DNA from: Candidatus Woesearchaeota archaeon
Lineage (GTDB): Archaea > Nanobdellota > Nanobdellia > Woesearchaeales > GW2011-AR9
DNA length: 64,000 bases
Direction: 5' to 3'
Assembly (NCBI GenBank): GCA_018696595.1
Contig: JABHQW010000008.1
Span: 288,001 to 352,000, forward strand
How positions within the stretch are numbered: the stretch's first letter is position 1; every line of letters starts with the position of its first letter. This document shows positions 3,710-62,902 of this stretch, one piece after another. The position numbers were made by a program, and so were the translations under genes. Below the pieces are notes generated by a model. That model had not been told where the DNA came from and did no database searches. It saw only the letters and a list, made by a program, of their open reading frames with translations.

Positions 3710-4594
3710 TTACAACTTAACATCTAACTTTTTTTCTAATTCTTTACGATATTCTTTAGCTTTAAACTCACCTTTAAAGAAGTCTAAGCGAGTACATAAC
3801 GATAATTTGTCAGCAAGCATTCTAGCAGCTCTACCTTTTTTTCTTCGTTCAGATCTTTGAATTAATGGGTGGTTTATGATTACTCCATATTTGGGACTTC
3901 GAGAACCTGTTTTAATATGTCTGAATAAAGCTTTCTCTGCTCCCAATAATTGAATTGTGGATGAGGGTAAAAGAGCTAAACGTTTTAAACTTCGGCCAAG
4001 TTCAATCAATTTAGCGCCAATAGTTGCGCCCGCTAATTCTAATAAGTTTGGACAAAACTTTTTCATTACTCCTTCCAAATAAGTTTCATGTTTCTTACGT
4101 AATCCTTGTAATTCACGAATCTGTTTAGCTAATATTAACATTTCATTAACATCTTCTTTTTTTAGGTCTGCACCCATAGTTTCTTTCAACTTTAATTCTT
4201 TCATCAAATCTTCCTTACTCTCACTAATAACCATCTCAACAAACTTTTCTTGGTTGTTCATAACATTTTCAAACTCTGGTAAATATAAAGAGAACCACTC
4301 ACGAAGCCTTTTAATTAGTATATTATTTACTTTATCTAATTCGTTAACGTTAGCAATTGCTTGGATAATTAACATATCTTCTGATACAGAAGCTTTGATT
4401 CCTTTCTTAGTCAATGCTAAATTTTTCTCATAAAACTGAGTATAGTTTTCTCTATCTTTGAATTTTGACAGGACTTCATTTACTTTATTTTTAGGCAATT
4501 GTTCAAGTTTCTCACTAGATTTAGCTTTTTCAATGCTCTTACTTTTAACATCGTAAACAAACTTCCCTAATATATTAGTAAAGGAATATCTCAT
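3710..4594 (-). CDS. nop5: Box C/D sRNP core protein Nop5 (Nop56/58)
   Basis: CPNLLELAGATIGAKLI, PSSTIQLLGAEKALF, PKYGVI, GRAARMLADK Nop-domain motifs; in an operon with flpA. Confidence 0.92.
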   Translation of the reverse strand: MRYSFTNILGKFVYDVKSKSIEKAKSSEKLEQLPKNKVNEVLSKFKDRENYTQFYEKNLALTKKGIKASVSEDMLIIQAIANVNELDKVNNILIKRLREWFSLYLPEFENVMNNQEKFVEMVISESKEDLMKELKLKETMGADLKKEDVNEMLILAKQIRELQGLRKKHETYLEGVMKKFCPNLLELAGATIGAKLIELGRSLKRLALLPSSTIQLLGAEKALFRHIKTGSRSPKYGVIINHPLIQRSERRKKGRAARMLADKLSLCTRLDFFKGEFKAKEYRKELEKKLDVKL

Positions 4595-4645
4595 GGAAAC
4601 TCTACAGAAACGTAAGCTATATAAACTTTCGCTTAAAAAGTATGA

Positions 4646-4726
4646 GTTTAGTTAGCTTTGCCAATGGAGGCACATTTTTTTCCATTGTTTGAAAAAAATA
4701 ATCGTGCCGTGCAAGCTTAACTAAAC
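4646..4726 (+). repeat. Dispersed structured hairpin element, copy 1 (candidate ncRNA or ssDNA hairpin)
   Basis: Outer stem GTTTAGTTAGCTT:AAGCTTAACTAAAC; core TGC-CAATGGA-GGCAC-ATTTTTTTC...GAAAAAAAT-AATC-GTGCC-GTG. Confidence 0.8.
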
Positions 4727-4753
4727 ACATTCCTTAAAATCGAGGGTTTTATA

Positions 4754-50952: not shown

Positions 50953-51280
50953 GATAGGTAGGGCGGAATAAGCCGCCTTTTGTCAAACCCAAACAATTAA
51001 CAATGTAATTGCGATGGTTTGTTTTAGCATTCTACTAAGCGTTGAACCAACTTGCACTGGTTAGTATTCGCCGTTTCATCGCTCCCATACAACATAGTCA
51101 TGGGGTTAACTCATTGCTTTCTCAAGCAACTTCGCCACTATCATCCCGATGTATGGACGTGTCGTTTCTGAGCCATGGACAGCCATTTCTGACTCTCACT
51201 TCCGTGAGTAACCTTTCATAGTGGGCGGACTTTCCTAAGCGAATAAATTCACCTTCTGCTAAATACCGCTCCTACCTATT
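50953..51280 (-). ncRNA. rnpB: RNase P RNA
   Basis: Minus strand carries AGGAAAGTCCGCC (P4 5'), CAGAAAC, GATGAAACGG, GTGCAAG, CGCTTAG and ACAAAAGGCGGCTTA (P4 3'); terminal P1 ATAGGTAGG:CCTACCTAT; TATA about 20-27 nt upstream. Confidence 0.95.
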
Positions 51281-55109: not shown

Positions 55110-56168
55110 ATGAAAGAAATAATTTTAAATTGGTTAGGGACAATTCCTTATGGTAATTATTTACAAAATAAATACCTTTTTGCTATTTTGATTTTGGTAA
55201 CGTTTACAATTGGTGCTAAACTATTGTTGTTTATTTTTGAGAAATATTTCCAAAGATGGGCCAAGAAAACTAAAACTGAAATTGATGATATTATTTTTGA
55301 CAGAACTAAAAAGCCAGCATTTTATTTCTTGTTAGCAATTGGGTTGAAGTTAGCAATATTACATTTAGAAGTTAATGGGATCGTAAATTCTTTAGTTAAT
55401 ACACTTATGGCAATCGTGTTTGTATTTATTATTGCTAAAGTTGTTGATACAGTTATTGATATCTGGGGAGAAACTTTTGCTAAGAAAACTAAAAGTAAGA
55501 TTGATGACGTTTTATTACCTTTATTTCATAAATTTACAAAAGTATTATTTGTGATCATTGCAATTCTATGGGTCTTAAAAATATGGGGCATTGATATTGG
55601 CCCATATTTGGCAGGGGCAGGAATTTTGGGAATAGTTATTGGGTTTGCTTTACAAGATTCTCTAAAAAACATTCTTGGTGGAATCACTTTACTTCTAGAC
55701 AAAACTTTTGAGATTGGGGATAAAGTTAAGATTGAATCTGGTAAAGTGGGAACAATTCATGATATTGGCTTAAGAAGTACTAAATTAATTACTTATGATA
55801 ATGAAGTGATTTACATCCCTAATGGATATTTAGCAAACTCTCAAGTACAGAATTATACCAGACCAAATCCAAAAGTTCGTGTAGGTATAGATTTTGGTGT
55901 TGAGTACGGCAGCGATGTTGCTAAAGTAACTGAATTAATTGTGGGGACTTTGAAAGGAACGGGTGGTCTTTTATCTGATCCTCTTCCAGCTGTACACTTT
56001 TTGTCTATGGGTGATTTTGCTTTAAACTTTAAAGCATATTTCTGGGTAGAGAAATGGGGCGATGCTTACAGTAAGAAGTTGGAAGTTACTGAAGCGATTT
56101 ATAATGCTTTGAACAAAGCTAAAATTGGAATACCTTTCCCAACACAAACTATTGAGCTAAAGAAGTAA
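55110..56168 (+). CDS. mscS: Small-conductance mechanosensitive channel
   Basis: IGFALQDSLKNILGG, FEIGD.V, IGLRST, IPNG, GIPFP. Confidence 0.95.
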   Translation: MKEIILNWLGTIPYGNYLQNKYLFAILILVTFTIGAKLLLFIFEKYFQRWAKKTKTEIDDIIFDRTKKPAFYFLLAIGLKLAILHLEVNGIVNSLVNTLMAIVFVFIIAKVVDTVIDIWGETFAKKTKSKIDDVLLPLFHKFTKVLFVIIAILWVLKIWGIDIGPYLAGAGILGIVIGFALQDSLKNILGGITLLLDKTFEIGDKVKIESGKVGTIHDIGLRSTKLITYDNEVIYIPNGYLANSQVQNYTRPNPKVRVGIDFGVEYGSDVAKVTELIVGTLKGTGGLLSDPLPAVHFLSMGDFALNFKAYFWVEKWGDAYSKKLEVTEAIYNALNKAKIGIPFPTQTIELKK

Positions 56169-56177
56169 GTTCCTTAG

Positions 56178-56254
56178 TAAAAGCACTACCACCAATGGAG
56201 GCGCATTTTGGAGTGTAACGACAAAATCTCGGGCGCCGTGCCGTAGTGCTTTTA
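56178..56254 (+). repeat. Dispersed structured hairpin element, copy 2
   Basis: TAAAAGCACTAC:GTAGTGCTTTTA; core CAC-CAATGGA-GGCGC-ATTTTG...CAAAAT-CTCGG-GCGCC-GTG (compensatory change relative to the other copies). Confidence 0.85.
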
Positions 56255-56306
56255 GTTGCTTTAAATAAGCAAATATTTTTATATTCTCTTTCTTTTTATT
56301 CTTATT

Positions 56307-56498
56307 ATGGACATATTATCACCAATCGGAATTATTGTAATCGCTTTGTTAGTAGTTGTTTCTGCTAGCTTCCTTTCTAAAATTCTCAAGGTGGTATTCT
56401 ATTTATTATTGATAGCTTTCGTATTGGTTGTGTTGTTTGGTATCTCTTACAACGATTTGTTGGGTTGGGCTTATGGGATTGTGCTGTGGGCGTTTTAA
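56307..56498 (+). CDS. Small two-TM membrane protein
   Basis: 63 aa, almost entirely hydrophobic, fills the gap before rfcS. Confidence 0.6.
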   Translation: MDILSPIGIIVIALLVVVSASFLSKILKVVFYLLLIAFVLVVLFGISYNDLLGWAYGIVLWAF

Positions 56499-56549
56499 AT
56501 ATTCTCTAAACAAGTAAAACTTATAAAGAATTAAGTTCCTAGTATTTTT

Positions 56550-57506
56550 ATGACTTCATCTATTTGGACAGAAAAGTACAGACCGCAAACTTTTGAAGAA
56601 GTTAAGGGTCAGAATGAGATTGTAAATAAAATTAAAGCATTTGTTTCTACAGGAAGTATGCCTCATTTATTATTTTCCGGGCCAGCAGGTGTAGGAAAAA
56701 CAACTCTCTCTTTAGTAATTGCTAAACAACTGTTCGGAGAATCTTGGAGACAAAACACTTTAGAATTAAATGCTTCTGATGAAAGAGGAATTGATGTTAT
56801 CAGAGTTAAAGTTAAAGATTTTGCTCGAACAAAAGCAATCGGCGATGTACCTTTCAAATTGATTTATTTAGATGAGTCAGATGCTTTAACAAAAGAAGCA
56901 CAGCAAGCTCTAAGAAGAACCATGGAGAACTATACTAGAACTTGCAGATTTATTTTGTCATGTAATTATTCTTCAAAGATTATTGATCCAATTCAATCAA
57001 GGTGTGCAGTGTTTAGATTTAGACCTCTTGCAGAAGAAGACATTTATCAGATGATTGATAAGTTATCTACAGATGAAGGCTTAACTGTTTCTGAAGAGGC
57101 TAAGAAGGCTTTATTTGAGGTATCTAATGGCGATTGTCGAAGACTTGAGAATGTAATGCAATCTTGTGCTGTAATCAAAAAAGATTTGGATGGAGAATTA
57201 GTTTATTCTATGGCTTCTGTCGCTAAACCAAAAGAGGTTAAAGAATTGTTAGAAGTTGCTGCTAAAGGGGATTTCATTTCTTCACGTAAGAAACTTCTTG
57301 ACTTAATGTTAAATTATGGTTTGTCTGGCTTAGATGTGATTAAACAGATTCAAAGAGAAATTTGGAACTTAGAATTGTTTGATGAGAAGAAAGTTGAGTT
57401 GATTGACAAATGTGGAGAAGTAGAGTTTCGAATGTCTGAAGGATCAGATGAGTATGTGCAATTAGAAGCTTTTCTGGCGTTCGTTGTTATGGTTGGTAGT
57501 AAGTAG
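56550..57506 (+). CDS. rfcS: Replication factor C small subunit (no intein)
   Basis: WTEKYRP, GPAGVGKTT, ELNASDERGI, LDESD, SRC. Confidence 0.98.
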   Translation: MTSSIWTEKYRPQTFEEVKGQNEIVNKIKAFVSTGSMPHLLFSGPAGVGKTTLSLVIAKQLFGESWRQNTLELNASDERGIDVIRVKVKDFARTKAIGDVPFKLIYLDESDALTKEAQQALRRTMENYTRTCRFILSCNYSSKIIDPIQSRCAVFRFRPLAEEDIYQMIDKLSTDEGLTVSEEAKKALFEVSNGDCRRLENVMQSCAVIKKDLDGELVYSMASVAKPKEVKELLEVAAKGDFISSRKKLLDLMLNYGLSGLDVIKQIQREIWNLELFDEKKVELIDKCGEVEFRMSEGSDEYVQLEAFLAFVVMVGSK

Positions 57507-57536
57507 TTTTATATATTATTTTAATTTCTTTATCAT

Positions 57537-58724
57537 ATGAAGTTTGATAACCTTACTAAAATAAAACTAGTGTATTTCTTCAAATCATTATTCTTCTTTT
57601 CGCCAATTATCACTCTCTTTTATTTCTCTCGTGGCTTAGATACGTTTCAAGTAGTTTCTTTAGAAGCCATCTTAATAATTTCTGTGCTACTAATGGAAGT
57701 TCCAACTGGAATTATTGCAGATAAGATTGGCAGAAAGTATTCTTTATCAATCCTAACTTTCTTTTATGTAATAGGAAACATTTGGACCATTTATGCTCAC
57801 TCTTATCGAGAATTTATTTTTATTGAGATCCTGTTTGGAATTGGAATCGCTTTTGGTTCTGGAGCAATAGAAGCGTTAGTTTATGATTCTCTTAAGTATC
57901 AAAAGAAAGAACGAACCATGGGCAAGGTCTGGGGCTCAATTAATTCTTATGCTTTAGTTGCGGGCGTTTTTGCGGTTACGTTAGGCGGATATTTGGCTAG
58001 GTCGCATGATTCAGATTCCTTTGTTCTATTACTTTGGCTTTATACGATCGGAGCAGTAATTGCTTTTATAATTTCATTATTTGTTACAGAAAGGAAACAC
58101 GAGAAAGATATTGTTAGAAAAAGTCCGCTATTATTGTTTAAAGAATCAACAGTTCATATTCTTGAAAATAAATCTTTGAGAAGAATAATTCTTCTTTCTG
58201 TGTTTACGCTTCCATTTACACATGTAATCTTATTTTTGTTTCAACCATATTTTTTAATGGCCAATGTCAATAATGCTTTATTTGGGGTGGCTATGGCTAT
58301 TGGGTCTGTTTTAGGTTTTTTCTTAATGAAATATGCTTACAAAATTGAAAGAAGGTTTGGAGTTAGCAAAACAATGTTTGTTGCTACTATCTTGCCCGGA
58401 TTATTATATTTAGTGATGGCTTTCTTTATTGGTCCTTGGTTATCTTTTACTTGGTACGTCTTACAAAAAGGTTTTATGAAGATTAGATGGCCTTTATTTT
58501 CACAGTATCAAAATACACATATTAAGAGTTACAATCGAGCCACCGTTTTGTCAGTAATTTCAATGATTGTTTCTTTATACTTAGGAATCATGCGTTTAGT
58601 TCTTGGAAAGATTGCTAATTACGATTTGATTACTTCATTTGTTGTTATGGGCGTAATTATTGTTGTTGGTGCAATCGCTTTCAGAATTAATGAAGGGCAC
58701 GTTAATGGTTCTGAGAGTGGATAA
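57537..58724 (+). CDS. MFS transporter
   Basis: EVPTGIIADKIGRK (motif A-like), SGAIEALVYDSL; 12 TM helices. Confidence 0.92.
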   Translation: MKFDNLTKIKLVYFFKSLFFFSPIITLFYFSRGLDTFQVVSLEAILIISVLLMEVPTGIIADKIGRKYSLSILTFFYVIGNIWTIYAHSYREFIFIEILFGIGIAFGSGAIEALVYDSLKYQKKERTMGKVWGSINSYALVAGVFAVTLGGYLARSHDSDSFVLLLWLYTIGAVIAFIISLFVTERKHEKDIVRKSPLLLFKESTVHILENKSLRRIILLSVFTLPFTHVILFLFQPYFLMANVNNALFGVAMAIGSVLGFFLMKYAYKIERRFGVSKTMFVATILPGLLYLVMAFFIGPWLSFTWYVLQKGFMKIRWPLFSQYQNTHIKSYNRATVLSVISMIVSLYLGIMRLVLGKIANYDLITSFVVMGVIIVVGAIAFRINEGHVNGSESG

Positions 58725-58756
58725 AATATATAAATGGAAAAGATAGGGATTATAAA

Positions 58757-59545
58757 ATGACAGAAAAAATATACTTCCACAATTCAAAGAAGCAAAAGTT
58801 ATGTGGGGTCCTAGAAGAACCTAAGCAAAGTAAAGAAGAAATTGTTATTCTTGTTCATGGATATAGTTCTAATAAAGAAGGTAAAACAACATCAGACATG
58901 GCTAAAGAATTGACGACAAGAGGGATGAATAGTTTTAGAATTGATTTGGATGGTTGTGGCGAATCAGAAGGATACTTCGCTGAACAGACAGTAACAAGCA
59001 TGGCAGACGATATTGTTTCTGCGATTAAGTTTGTTGAAAGTTTAGGTTACGAGAATATTGATTTAATGGGGGCTAGTGGCGGTGCAATCTCAAGTATGGT
59101 TGCGGTTTTACAATGTCCCCAAATTAGAAAACTAGCATTAAAATCTCCAACATTTGATTATGTTGAACAAAGAAGAAAAAGTTATGGTGAAGAAAAAATA
59201 AAAAAATGGAAAGAGAAAGGCCATTTAATGATTGAAAAAAGTAGAGGCACTTTAAGGGTTGATTACTCCTTCTTTGAAGATGCACACAATCATATTATGT
59301 ATGATAAAGTTAAAAATATTAGTTGTCCTGTTTTGATGATTCATGGTGATGCTGATGAAGTAGTTGATATTAAACAGAGTAAAAAGGCAGTAAATAATTT
59401 TCCTAATGTTAAATTAATTATTTTTCATGGGGCTAATCATAATTTGGGTTTAGATGGAGATCGGTCTCTATCAAATAAACTATTTGCAGATTGGTTGGAA
59501 GGAAAAGAATTAATTGTTTCTGAACCACATTACTTTTACAATTAA
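58757..59545 (+). CDS. Alpha/beta hydrolase
   Basis: HG, GCGESEG, GASGG nucleophile elbow, IHGDADEVV, GANH. Confidence 0.92.
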   Translation: MTEKIYFHNSKKQKLCGVLEEPKQSKEEIVILVHGYSSNKEGKTTSDMAKELTTRGMNSFRIDLDGCGESEGYFAEQTVTSMADDIVSAIKFVESLGYENIDLMGASGGAISSMVAVLQCPQIRKLALKSPTFDYVEQRRKSYGEEKIKKWKEKGHLMIEKSRGTLRVDYSFFEDAHNHIMYDKVKNISCPVLMIHGDADEVVDIKQSKKAVNNFPNVKLIIFHGANHNLGLDGDRSLSNKLFADWLEGKELIVSEPHYFYN

Positions 59546-59591
59546 AACCTGGATAGAAAAAATAAATTAAAAAGAAAAAAATAAAAAAACT

Positions 59592-60488
59592 TTATTCAAC
59601 ACTCTCTTTGATTCTTAGAGTTTCCTGAATAATGTCTCTGTATTTGTAAGAAATTGTTAACCCTAACTGCTTAGTTGCTAAAGTTCCTTCTGGTAACGCT
59701 TCTTTTAACTTACAGATTATTTCTGCTTCGCCGTTAATTAAACGAGCTTCTCCCAACTTGCCACCTTGTTTACATTCCCAATTAATATCATCAATAGCGT
59801 AAGCCACTCTTTCCTGAACTCCAAAGTCGTCTCCTGGCTTAGTTACTTTACCACTGCCAACATTACTTACTTTAATCTTCAAAGCCATAATACCTTTACC
59901 AGCAGTACTTTCTTCCACACTAGTAATTGTAATTGGTGCACCAGAAACAAAATAAGTTTTTGCTCCATCTATTGTACAAACACGGTCGTCAGTTAAATCT
60001 TCTTTTAAACAAACTTCCGGAACGATCAAATAAGTTTCATAATTGTAATCAAAGTTTGCAAACCATTCTCTGTCAATAGCTCCATTAACTGGTTGACTAT
60101 ATTTTGCATCTGAAGAAAATGTTAAAGTTTCTTCTCCACCGATAGTTAAAAGTTCAGAAACAGTTTCAATTGTTCCAGCATTTTTTAATGCTAGTGAAGG
60201 AATTCCTGTGAAGTCCATAGAAGGTCCTTTTAATTCCACAGTAATGTCTCCTGGTTGAATCTCATATTCTCCTTTGTTGTTCAGAGTAACTTCAATAGGA
60301 ATTGTTTCTGCATCAAAAATACTATAAACTCCGTCTTCTACAACTCCGAATGGTTCGAAGGTAGCCATTATTCCTTGTGTTCCGCCAATGAATGCTCCAC
60401 TACCTGCTGTTGTAGTTGTGTCTTCACCATCACATCCTACTAATAGAATTGCACTAATCAATAAAATTGCTAAAATTATTCGTTTCAT
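59592..60488 (-). CDS. Putative lipoprotein (lipobox LVGC), paralog of 32423..33295
   Basis: GTQGIMATF, NNKG, VCL..C, GAPITI, VSNVGSG, ISYKY. Confidence 0.72.
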   Translation of the reverse strand: MKRIILAILLISAILLVGCDGEDTTTTAGSGAFIGGTQGIMATFEPFGVVEDGVYSIFDAETIPIEVTLNNKGEYEIQPGDITVELKGPSMDFTGIPSLALKNAGTIETVSELLTIGGEETLTFSSDAKYSQPVNGAIDREWFANFDYNYETYLIVPEVCLKEDLTDDRVCTIDGAKTYFVSGAPITITSVEESTAGKGIMALKIKVSNVGSGKVTKPGDDFGVQERVAYAIDDINWECKQGGKLGEARLINGEAEIICKLKEALPEGTLATKQLGLTISYKYRDIIQETLRIKESVE

Positions 60489-60582
60489 CTTATCTTACCT
60501 CTTTTAATTATAATTATATTGGAAAAGAATATTGACATATATAAAGTTTACTCATTGTCTGTGTAGTCAAGTCTTCTGTGTT

Positions 60583-60708
60583 AGCAAAAGCATTACCGCC
60601 AATGGAGGCACATTTTGTTCATTTTTTATTTAATGAAAAGCACGAAACAACGTGAAGTGGCTAAAATTAATGGACAAAATCTTAGGTGCCGTGCGTAATG
60701 CTTTTGCT
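60583..60708 (+). repeat. Dispersed structured hairpin element, copy 3 (expanded apical loop)
   Basis: AGCAAAAGCATTAC:GTAATGCTTTTGCT; core CGC-CAATGGA-GGCAC-ATTTTGTTCATT...AATGGACAAAAT-CTTAG-GTGCC-GTG. Confidence 0.85.
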
Positions 60709-60769
60709 CAATTAATTAATATTTAATAGAATTTTAACTTAATGATGCAAACAGCAATTCCATAGAAAT

Positions 60770-61738
60770 TCATTGTCCTAGTGGTGAAGCAACAATTTTA
60801 AGCGGTTGAGTATAAGAGTCAATGTAAGAATAATCAAATTTTACTTGTAAAATTGTTTCATAAGCGTTACTATTGCCAATGTTGTTAGAAGTACAAACAA
60901 TCTTGCCCTGGTTATTTGTTAAACGAACTTTATGATTTAATGGTTTACAGTTTAATGGTGATCCATCATTTAGTGAAACTTCAAACTCAACCACATCTAA
61001 ATCTTTATATTCTAAAGATGCGCCACCACAATTTTGAATGTTTGCCCCATAATCTAAAACTCGGCCACCGCCGTTATTAACAACATTAATTTCAAAGATG
61101 GCTTTATCTCCAATCATATCTACGCCGACATAACTTACTCCTACTGGTGCTCCTTGGCCGCCGCCCATTCCTACATCGTGTGGGATACAAGCTTTCTGTT
61201 CAGAAGTGATTTGATAAAATAAAGGATCAATACAAACTTGCGGATTCGCAGTTGTAGTGTAACGATAACAAGTTAAAAAGTTTAATACTGGATTATATTC
61301 AAAAACATCTGTTGGTAAGTTTACGTTTGGTGAGGTGAACTGAATCACATTAGTTGCTCCTAATGTATTATATACATTTTTTCCTTCCAAAACACCCATG
61401 TTTGCAGCACAAGGGATACTATTTGTAAAACTTCCACTGATTATACTTTTATCAAATCCCGTAACTTGAATATAACAATCAGGAATTTCAATATCATCAT
61501 TTCCTTTATTGTGAACTTCAACCATTGCAATTAATTCATTATCATCATAAATTAAAGCAGGGGGTTGATTTTGAATAATTTGAATTTCTACTCCTTGTGT
61601 TCCAGTTTGAACTGCTGTTAATGCTGCAGCAGTATCTTGTGGTTTTTCTCCTGCTGGAATCGCGCCACCACAAGAACTAAGAAATAAAGCTAGAATCACT
61701 AGTACTGAACATAACGTTAAACTCACACTCTTTTTCAT
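60770..61738 (-). CDS. Putative lipoprotein (lipobox LSSC), paralog of 32423..33295
   Basis: Start moved to ATG 61738 (MKKSVSL...LFLSSC); GTQGVEI..NQPP, HNKG, VCIDP, GAPVGV, VNNGGG, FDYSY. Confidence 0.75.
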   Translation of the reverse strand: MKKSVSLTLCSVLVILALFLSSCGGAIPAGEKPQDTAAALTAVQTGTQGVEIQIIQNQPPALIYDDNELIAMVEVHNKGNDDIEIPDCYIQVTGFDKSIISGSFTNSIPCAANMGVLEGKNVYNTLGATNVIQFTSPNVNLPTDVFEYNPVLNFLTCYRYTTTANPQVCIDPLFYQITSEQKACIPHDVGMGGGQGAPVGVSYVGVDMIGDKAIFEINVVNNGGGRVLDYGANIQNCGGASLEYKDLDVVEFEVSLNDGSPLNCKPLNHKVRLTNNQGKIVCTSNNIGNSNAYETILQVKFDYSYIDSYTQPLKIVASPLGQ

Positions 61739-61802
61739 AATTCTAAATAAAAGAAATTGATTATATAAGCTTTTCGCTGTCTTGAACTGAAATTTTAATG
61801 GA

Positions 61803-61976
61803 CTACGTTCGGAATAGAAGACATTTGTATACTGCGTGCCGGCGCGTGGATTTTGTGAGTAGCGCCAAATGAGGCACATTTTTTGACTAAAAGTCAAAAA
61901 ATCTCGGGTGCCGTGTCCTACTCGCAAAATGCGCCTATTGCAGGCAGTATACAAAATAGTGTTATTCCGAACGTAG
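61803..61976 (+). repeat. Dispersed structured hairpin element, copy 4 (rod-like, nested)
   Basis: CTACGTTCGGAATA:TATTCCGAACGTAG, TTTGTATACTGC:GCAGTATACAAA, ATTTTGTGAGTAG:CTACTCGCAAAAT; core CGC-CAAATGA-GGCAC-ATTTTTTGACT-AAA-AGTCAAAAAAT-CTCGG-GTGCC-GTG. Confidence 0.88.
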
Positions 61977-62046
61977 CCCTCTGCAATGAAAACAATTATA
62001 AAGAGAAGTCTGTTTTTCCTGCTCAGTCAAATGGGAGGATAGCAAA

Positions 62047-62283
62047 ATGGCAAAATTCAAAATATTACACTTTAAAGAAGAATGTATCAGTTGTGGTGCT
62101 TGTGCAGCGATTTGTCCAGAATTCTGGGAAATGGATGGCGAAGGAATGGCACAATTAAAAGAATCTAAACAAGTTGGGGATCATTGGGAGAGAATCATTG
62201 ATACAGAAGATGCACGGTCAAGAAATCAAGAAGCGGTTGATGCTTGTCCAGTTACAGTAATAAAGTTAGAAGAATTAGAATAA
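62047..62283 (+). CDS. Single-cluster ferredoxin
   Basis: CISCGACAAICP...ACP; GGAGG RBS. Confidence 0.93.
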   Translation: MAKFKILHFKEECISCGACAAICPEFWEMDGEGMAQLKESKQVGDHWERIIDTEDARSRNQEAVDACPVTVIKLEELE

Positions 62284-62317
62284 TTTTTAAACTCTTTCTT
62301 ATTTATTATATTTAATT

Positions 62318-62794
62318 ATGCAAAAGCTAATAATCTTAAATACCAGAAAAGTTAAGAAAATCAAAGAAATTCTTATCAAACAGTTTGGTTTCTTTCCTAA
62401 ACATGATTATGCTTTCTTACAGAATGAGAAAAATCGTATTTTTATGGTTAACAAGGATTTTGGAAGAATCGATCTAGATAAGCTTAGAATTGATCGATTT
62501 GGGCTTTATTTCGCCGAACATAAAGATAATCATGTCCGCTTAAGTAAAGAAGGGGCACAATTCTTGGCCAGAATGGCTAAAGAAGAGAAGAAGGAACTTG
62601 AGAATGTTTTTGAGCTAGACGAACCTGAAATGAGAACATATTTTAAAGGCCAAGATCTAATTAAAGACCTGGGTTCAGAGGCAAGGTTAATTTTGCTAAA
62701 ATACAAAAAAGACATCTTTGGGTGTGCTAAATATAAAGAAGGAAAGATTCTCAATTTTCTTCCAAAAATCCATCGGGGAGAAGTAATTCTTTAA
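62318..62794 (+). CDS. Stand-alone PUA-like protein (NIP7 / RsmF-Nop2-associated domain)
   Basis: GLYFAE...RLSKEGAQ, Y.KGQDL, G.AKY..GKILNFLPK..R. Confidence 0.7.
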   Translation: MQKLIILNTRKVKKIKEILIKQFGFFPKHDYAFLQNEKNRIFMVNKDFGRIDLDKLRIDRFGLYFAEHKDNHVRLSKEGAQFLARMAKEEKKELENVFELDEPEMRTYFKGQDLIKDLGSEARLILLKYKKDIFGCAKYKEGKILNFLPKIHRGEVIL

Positions 62795-62902
62795 ATTTTA
62801 AGCTTATTCTAAATTTATTAATCACTTATTAGTAGAAATTATCGAAAGGTTTATAAGTGTGTTGTCATCTAACAGTAGAAAATCGCGATAAATAAAATAA
62901 AA

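Follow-up and report, generated by a model that had tools for sequence, protein, structure and literature searches.

The dispersed hairpins of marine Woesearchaeota described here are not RNA genes; they are very probably MITEs with IS6-type ends. The kind of element is ordinary, but the family is new, its centre is unusually constrained and its insertions prefer the edges of promoters. The hairpin under study lies in a 64,000-nt stretch of DNA, hereafter the window (contig 3: 288001-352000 of the 1.19-Mb genome G000), together with three further copies. An earlier note on this DNA had left the choice between a structured RNA and a mobile hairpin. The mobile part of that proposal stands. The RNA-gene part does not, given the random orientation of copies relative to genes, their presence and absence between relatives, the lack of any Rfam match and adjoining TATA boxes that belong to other genes. 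The simple explanation as a MITE, which the note had set against its own proposal, is the one that the copies bear out.

All four window elements are present at the positions that the note had given and fold as it had described (z = -3.1 to -4.0 for the three short hairpins and -11 for the 174-nt one). They are not a family of four, however. Searching by pattern and with a covariance model derived from a 14-copy alignment recovered about 24 copies in G000, all intergenic and on both strands; the shared strand noted earlier is true of the four window hairpins and false for the family. The elements proper (93, 92, 210 and about 180 bp for copies 1 to 4, Table 1) are also longer than the hairpins that had been flagged. 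Within the same GTDB family, 18 of 41 genomes carry between 1 and 38 copies each, one congener having none and another 38, and 16 genomes representing the order's 16 remaining families are free of it. When one genome for each of 185,579 species was scanned for the exact pattern, 104 stretches came up, nearly all of them from Woesearchaeota/Nanoarchaeota MAGs or mislabelled Methanosarcinales and most of them marine; the three or four bacterial matches equal the chance expectation. Within the collections searched, the element occurs almost only in Woesearchaeota (GTDB Nanoarchaeota). On viral contigs, ten matches to a 19-mer of the core were attributed to chance, none being confirmed by the model, and matches to a 14-mer of the ends were likewise chance only.

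Table 1. Hairpin elements of the window and the promoter elements beside them (window positions).
Feature	Position	Strand	Description
TATA box of leftward gene near copy 1	4619..4626	-	CGAAAG then TTTATATA; 6 nt past left duplication
Copy 1	4640..4732	+	Complete element, 93 bp; core halves 4660-4674 and 4704-4712
Copy 2 (flagged element)	56171..56262	+	92-bp insertion around hairpin 56178-56254, from sequence and fold
Copy 2 core halves	56191-56205 (5' half); 56233-56241 (3' half)	+	
TATA-like box TTTATATT of downstream gene	56278..56285	+	7 nt past copy 2 right duplication
TATA box of leftward gene near copy 3	60538..60545	-	6 nt past left duplication
Copy 3	60560..60769	+	210-bp element; hairpin 60583-60708 with apical insert of about 55 nt
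Copy 4	61800..61979	+	Composite element, about 180 bp; right duplication decayed
Inner hairpin unit nested in apical loop of copy 4 shell	61855..61925	+	Core halves 61864-61878 and 61908-61916
TATA-like box AATTATAAAG of downstream gene	61994..62003	+	Preceded by GAAAAC; just past copy 4 right duplication

The window copies differ in how well the marks of insertion are preserved: copies 1 and 4 have both inverted ends, copy 3 has one and copy 2 none. Copy 1 is bounded by GTATGAGTTTAGTT on the left and GAATGTGTTTAGTT (reverse complement) on the right, between target duplications CTTAAAA at 4632-4638 and 4733-4739; its left neighbour is a minus-strand gene with its start at 4594. Copy 2, without recognisable terminal inverted repeats, has the decayed remains of an 8-bp duplication on its flanks, AAGTAAGT at 56163-56170 against AAATAAGC at 56263-56270. 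The orthologous spacer is empty in two congeners (G001 contig 23 and G002 contig 161), where TAAGTAAAT is directly followed by CTTTTATATTA, and the TATA-like box TTTATATT stands directly after the empty site there. A copy at contig 5:36693 is identical to copy 2 in core and loop. Copy 3 lies between perfect 8-bp direct repeats, TCATTGTC, at 60552-60559 and 60770-60777; its left end, TGTGTAGTCAAG, is IS6-like and its right end is decayed. The orthologous spacer is about 220 nt shorter in G001, and in G002 it is occupied by another member of the family, oppositely oriented. The ORFs flanking copy 3, of 394 aa (60770-61954, minus strand) and 298 aa (59592-60488, minus strand), belong to no Pfam family; nor does a 418-aa ORF beside a copy in the genome G021, to which the 394-aa ORF is unrelated. 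Copy 4 has the ends GGACTACGTTCGGAAT and, as reverse complement, GGCTACGTTCGGAAT. Its site is empty in G001 and G002, and the box AATTATAAAG beside it is conserved in G002. Metagenome contigs over 55110-62800 yielded no clean strain-level empty-site joint for copy 2 or copy 3. The outer shell of copy 4 (window 61792-62048) reaches a summed contig depth of 5 to 571 in four marine metagenomes, and 271 to 571 in three of them, while most flanking bins lie at about 2-30, which indicates that this shell repeat is very abundant across marine populations.

Transposition is recorded at many further sites. In an alignment of 86 copies, all found via their core so that members with decayed cores are invisible by design, 27 have ends with at least 9 of 10 positions paired, together with a direct repeat of 7-11 bp, compared with 1 of 86 in a control with reversed flanks. 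The duplications are of 8 bp in 13 of these copies, of 9 bp in 11, and of 7, 10 and 11 bp in one each. Recognisable inverted ends occur on both sides of 34 copies and on one side of 20 (control, 1 and 11), which makes at least one end in 54 of 86 copies against 12 of 86 in the control; the remaining 32 copies, including copy 2, have none. Complete elements measure 93-241 bp. Comparison of G002 copies with G000 also yielded clear insertions: G002 carries an element of about 140 bp with its direct repeat where G000 has a single copy of the repeat, i.e., an empty site. A single site was seen to be shared by the two genomes, occupied by a different subfamily in each.

Some arrangements suggest that the core might move by itself, as a separate cassette that spreads or recombines alone, entering palindromes at their apical loops as well as plain intergenic DNA, with IS6-type MITEs as only one of its carriers. 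Copy 4 and at least three more copies in the genome each have a core unit set, in reverse orientation, into the apical loop of another member of the family. The shell of copy 4 is itself a diverged member on the minus strand (model hit 61824-61961; core helix GGCGCATTTT at 61926-61935, minus strand), and metagenome contigs carry the same shell with plain loops of 12-27 nt in place of the nested unit. Units with the inner stem GAGCAGCG...CCCTGCTC are found both nested and standing alone, and the 32 copies without inverted ends, as well as elements in the genome G018 with extra hairpins or 150-nt cargo between the core halves, would also be in line with a cassette. We nevertheless consider it rather unlikely: no enzyme, footprint or target duplication specific to the bare unit was found, and the copies without inverted ends are concentrated in G000, which is free of transposases and where decay of ends is expected. 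Furthermore, every short inverted-end pair examined in G018 encloses a core, and the parts therefore travel together; solo inverted ends in that genome are truncated elements with no adjoining transposase gene. Still, the nesting and the copies that have no inverted ends hint that the elements may also spread in a second manner.

The assignment as MITEs with IS6-type ends draws on the element termini. These form one loose family (GGCACTGTCAAG, GGTGCTGTCCAG, TGGTCTGTCCAG, TGGTCTGTCCAGAAT, GTACGTATTTAGTT and GGCTTCATCCGGAAT) with GG tips and a CTGT/GTC motif, fitting the description of the ends of IS6, a family characterised by inverted repeats of 15-20 bp that start with GG and contain a cTGTt motif, and by target repeats of 8 bp (PMC7986276), and for which ISfinder lists two MITEs, MITEBth2 and MITEHarch3 (PMC7986276, PMC6807381). 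Similar ends bound a 933-bp insertion sequence in G052, a genome from another genus (locus L369 1013-1945): its left end is identical to a MITE end of G021 at 25 of 30 positions, and its right end to a MITE end of G002 at 19 of 26. It is flanked by a 9-bp duplication, CTATTCTTT (8 bp if the boundary is moved by one), and contains a single ORF of 264 aa that matches PF13610 with 65.5 bits (cut-off 27) and the NCBIfam model transpos_IS6 with 123.2 bits (E = 1e-35), just under the cut-off of 125. G052 also holds 14 MITE copies, but those fetched did not show the ends of its insertion sequence, so that the link to IS6 rests on end similarity across genomes. We infer that the copies were moved in trans by an IS6-type transposase such as that of G052.

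The PF13610 search of the archaeal family found IS6-type genes in 8-9 of 41 genomes, and across these 41 the presence of the IS6 Pfam domain did not correlate with that of the hairpin element; another IS6-type element, found in G021, carries a duplication of 8 bp but different ends. G000 contains no match to IS6, IS1, Y1 or TnpB models and no multicopy ORF, and TnpB (PF07282), absent there, is rare in the family. A transposase with matching ends was found neither in G000 nor in most of the genomes that carry the element, and the 739 kb surrounding 104 copies in other genomes contained neither two family ends at a distance of 600-3500 bp nor an IS1/IS6 gene. As G000 encodes no transposase, its copies are orphans, several of them with decayed ends. 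No transposase-bearing element contained the core; the G052 insertion sequence is without it, and its transposase thus needs no core to move its own element. Between the left end of that insertion sequence and the start codon of its transposase lies a GC-rich nested hairpin with a 7-nt 3' bulge (L369 1053-1135), the layout of which loosely recalls the MITE core although it has no match to the model. IS1 was also considered as a source, on account of the 8-9 bp duplications and of a MITE end that matches positions 4-19 of the E. coli IS1 end at 14 of 16 positions. It was rejected since the IS1 ends of the family differ (GGGGGTG...GACTGATAG) and no core lies nearby. The IS1-family elements seen at L127 1146-1909 (G017) and L126 (G046), in genomes without the hairpin element, have two ORFs that overlap and the ends GGGGGTG...TTTGACTGATAG.

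The centre of the element is a hairpin of about 90 nt whose architecture, proposed earlier from the four window copies, was confirmed by the alignment of 14 copies from this genome. From the 5' side, a variable outer stem leads to a GC closing pair, an unpaired CAAWNGA and a 5-bp helix GGCRC:GYGCC; a variable inner hairpin follows, and then a 3' bulge of 4-6 nt, GT, GC and the outer stem. About 24 positions, around which all three helices covary, are near-invariant (78-86 of 86 copies, most of them 83-86): on the 5' side GCC, AA, GAGG, C, C and A, and on the 3' side G, G, CC and GTGC. The compensatory swap between GGCGC:GCGCC and GGCAC:GTGCC is real (41 versus 45 among 86 copies), with GGGGC:GCCCC, GGTAC:GTACC, GGGAC:GTCCC and AGCAC:GTGCT as further variants of the central helix, and in other genera the inner helix ATTTT:AAAAT is replaced by ACGAG:CTCGT or by ACGGCG-type stems. 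In the 86-copy alignment, which was fitted to the model and contains related copies, so that its pairing and G:T counts lean towards structure, 96.4% of pairing cells are paired, compared with 38-57% in slid-partner controls, and 23 of 26 pairs show two-sided changes.

The fold also carries a strand. The claim that G:T pairs favour one strand holds in the inner hairpin, with 50 G:T/T:G against 16 A:C/C:A combinations; with duplicate stems removed, the outer stem retains 26 versus 9 and the inner stem 11 versus 1. In the outer arms, aligned independently, G:T and A:C are present at 42 to 35 and Watson-Crick pairing reaches only 73%. Selection on a fold with fixed unpaired nucleotides, acting on one strand, survived every test that was run. 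Two details of the original description did not: the suggested tertiary contact between GAG and CTC is not conserved, since the 3' bulge varies (CTCGG, CTAAG, TAATC and others), and the apical loop, put at 3 to about 45 nt, accepts inserts of up to about 150 nt. In G018, elements with extra hairpins or 150-nt cargo between intact core halves have perfect duplications. The grown members L124 (G018 contig 9: 5819-6115) and L125 (G018 contig 15: 3380-3622), with intact core halves, are flanked by perfect 8-bp target duplications (TGAGGGGA and GTTGTGAT), and enlarged elements hence still transposed. Cargo and extra hairpins between intact halves indicate that these halves clamp a variable site at the centre of the palindrome. 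A second conserved module was observed in the apical cargo of longer copies: a small hairpin with the loop GAAACAA and varying closing stems, followed by GAAGTG or TAGTG, at window positions 60617-60682, contig 2:52970, contig 3:230599 and contig 4:31516 as well as in many copies of G002 and G016. Coding capacity was not apparent: the short ORF that begins at the ATG within CCAATGG is not conserved, many copies having no ATG, and none of the 86 copies is spanned by a stop-free frame of 120 codons or more.

Strong covariation around invariant unpaired bases, with a one-strand excess of G:T pairs, is what would be expected of new structured non-coding RNA genes with a function for the host, such as a protein-binding RNA, a ribozyme or a riboswitch, that had been multiplied by duplication. 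The earlier statement that the hairpins belong to no known class agrees with this, as none of the four reaches the gathering threshold of any Rfam family, and at E values up to 10 the elements gave only noise of 15-19 bits. Some copies are moreover placed such that they could be transcribed, e.g., copy 2 just past a stop codon. This reading is nonetheless very unlikely. The inverted ends and the duplications of 8-9 bp are signatures of transposition, copies are distributed patchily (congeners range from 0 to 38) and orthologous sites are empty, and the single site shared by G000 and G002 holds different subfamilies. Copies are oriented at random to genes (17 versus 14), many of them are located between divergent promoters, and the adjoining TATA boxes fire away from the element. 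Three metatranscriptome runs of the source study contain almost none of the words of the region and so are silent on expression either way.

Particular RNA classes were considered individually and rejected. With ARAGORN and RF00005, the elements proved to be neither tRNAs nor insertions in tRNA genes. A k-turn does not fit, as the loop is CAAWNGA opposite GT and the alignment shows an invariant T at the position of the k-turn's obligatory A. H/ACA or C/D guide RNAs were excluded by the lack of ACA and C/D box motifs and by the variable parts, which are self-paired and therefore cannot act as guides. Substrates of the bulge-helix-bulge type have 3-nt bulges and a 4-bp helix, whereas here bulges of 7 and 4-6 nt border a 5-bp helix, and the canonical order appears only on the strand that the G:T bias disfavours.

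A different objection is that the core may be conserved without any function, the arms of a young palindrome family having been mutually corrected by template switching. Palindromic DNA can keep its pairing by intrastrand correction, and because copies are related, covariation counts overstate the number of independent events. Arm correction cannot, however, protect unpaired bases, and it is these that stay at 83-86 of 86 copies while the stems and the central helix changed often (six helix variants). The outer arms, with their lower pairing and without G:T bias, further show that no general correction process is at work, which leaves conservation without function highly improbable.

Scarcely credible is a reading as REP/REPIN-like or IS200/IS605-type single-stranded DNA elements whose mobility would depend on recognition of the bulged hairpin by a Y1 HUH transposase: conserved one-strand unpaired bases in an imperfect hairpin do resemble TnpA/RAYT targets and Y1_Tnp genes occur in 8 of 25 genomes of the family, once 1.4 kb from a G021 copy, yet the look-up for a HUH/RAYT nuclease that the earlier note suggested gave no Y1_Tnp candidate in G000, Y1_Tnp shows no association with the element (3 of 10 element-positive genomes, G000 counted, versus 4 of 12 element-negative ones), no core-like hairpin adjoins any TnpA gene, and the 8-9 bp duplications largely refute it. 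IS200/IS605 elements are not known to make target duplications. In place of hairpin ends for a HUH enzyme or tyrosine recombinase, as had been proposed, the elements have terminal inverted repeats and 8-9 bp duplications that are typical of DDE transposases of the IS6 type.

The MITEs do not insert at random. Among 26 copies with a clear duplication, 13 have a TATA-like 8-mer that starts 5-6 nt past the duplication on one side, a placement met at 4.4% of random intergenic positions in G000 (p ~1e-11). The four window copies have their TATA boxes at offsets between 5 and 7, and the G052 insertion sequence shows the same placement as the MITE copies. The 8-mers point away from the element; the boxes before copies 1 and 3 are thus promoters of the leftward genes and not the elements' own. 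Over gene contexts, divergent genes flank 25 copies and convergent genes 6, and in tandem contexts orientation is random, with 17 co-oriented and 14 anti-oriented. New copies hence preferentially land at the outer edge of the BRE/TATA core promoter, where the transposase probably recognises promoter DNA itself or DNA bound by TBP/TFB.

What the core contributes to such a MITE can be narrowed down in part. Insertions turn over between congeners, and core conservation thus does not come from host function at each locus. That about 24 bases are kept and the helices covary despite this turnover argues for constraint on the propagating element lineage and, by extension, for a core that is needed in cis. 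We regard a cis-acting role of the core in spread as about evenly balanced. The one-strand G:T excess is confined to the core module, which suggests that the core works single-stranded. DDE transposases act on duplex DNA and so leave a strand-specific fold unexplained. As a best guess, the core could be a structured ssDNA or RNA signal that acts during or after replicative transposition, possibly as a priming or assembly site; any specific mechanism is at best tentative. We likewise entertain only tentatively the combined model in which the bulged hairpin is a strand-specific cis signal for propagation, read by a host or transposon protein, and in which family and transposase are aimed at promoters, with targeting perhaps via BRE/TATA or bound TBP/TFB.

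Among known systems, IS6/IS26 and their MITE derivatives are alike in GG tips, the CTGT/GTC motif and elements without an ORF, and come close in their duplications, of 8 bp there and 8 or 9 bp here; a related genome offers an element of about 930 bp with near-identical ends and a single gene for an IS6-type DDE transposase. Unlike in IS6, duplications of 9 bp occur about as often as those of 8 bp, the element forms over its whole length an extended imperfect palindrome inserted at the upstream edge of promoters, and its centre is a conserved, covarying bulged hairpin that is missing from the parent element. REP/REPIN-RAYT systems and IS200/IS605 ends share the imperfect hairpin, the conserved unpaired bases and the strand-specific fold, but differ by the inverted ends and 8-9 bp duplications found here and by the lack of a Y1 transposase in G000. 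Palindromic repeats of bacteria, i.e., Correia/NEMIS elements in Neisseria, ERIC/IRU in enterobacteria and the Rickettsia palindromic elements, are short, non-coding, hairpin-forming and intergenic, with copy numbers that vary between relatives. Correia elements have a functional centre (an IHF site) and a TA duplication, and ERIC elements have larger versions formed by internal insertions. These repeats differ in their bacterial hosts and in their ends and duplications. None is known to keep an asymmetric bulged core across subfamilies in which all stems have changed, or to lie at a fixed distance from a TATA box.

For annotation, the hairpins should be recorded as copies of a mobile element and not as candidate ribozymes, riboswitches or guide RNAs; their covariation is so strong that the family will keep yielding false RNA calls in DPANN genomes. 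Marine Woesearchaeota, with their tiny, reduced genomes, harbour MITE copies by the dozen and in most cases no transposase that could be detected, and a centre more constrained than the transposase-binding ends is the reverse of the usual MITE pattern. The fixed TATA spacing of 5-6 nt would open to direct test how an archaeal transposase chooses its target, possibly by reading TBP/TFB bound at promoters.

Apart from the hairpins, the sole Rfam match at gathering level in the window is an archaeal RNase P RNA (RF00373, 138.7 bits) at 50957-51276 on the minus strand. The genome, rated 97% complete, has only 14 tRNA genes according to ARAGORN, 17 RF00005 matches and about 14 canonical T-arms, none of them in the window; either the majority of its tRNA genes are missing from the assembly, or they are split, permuted or heavily interrupted.
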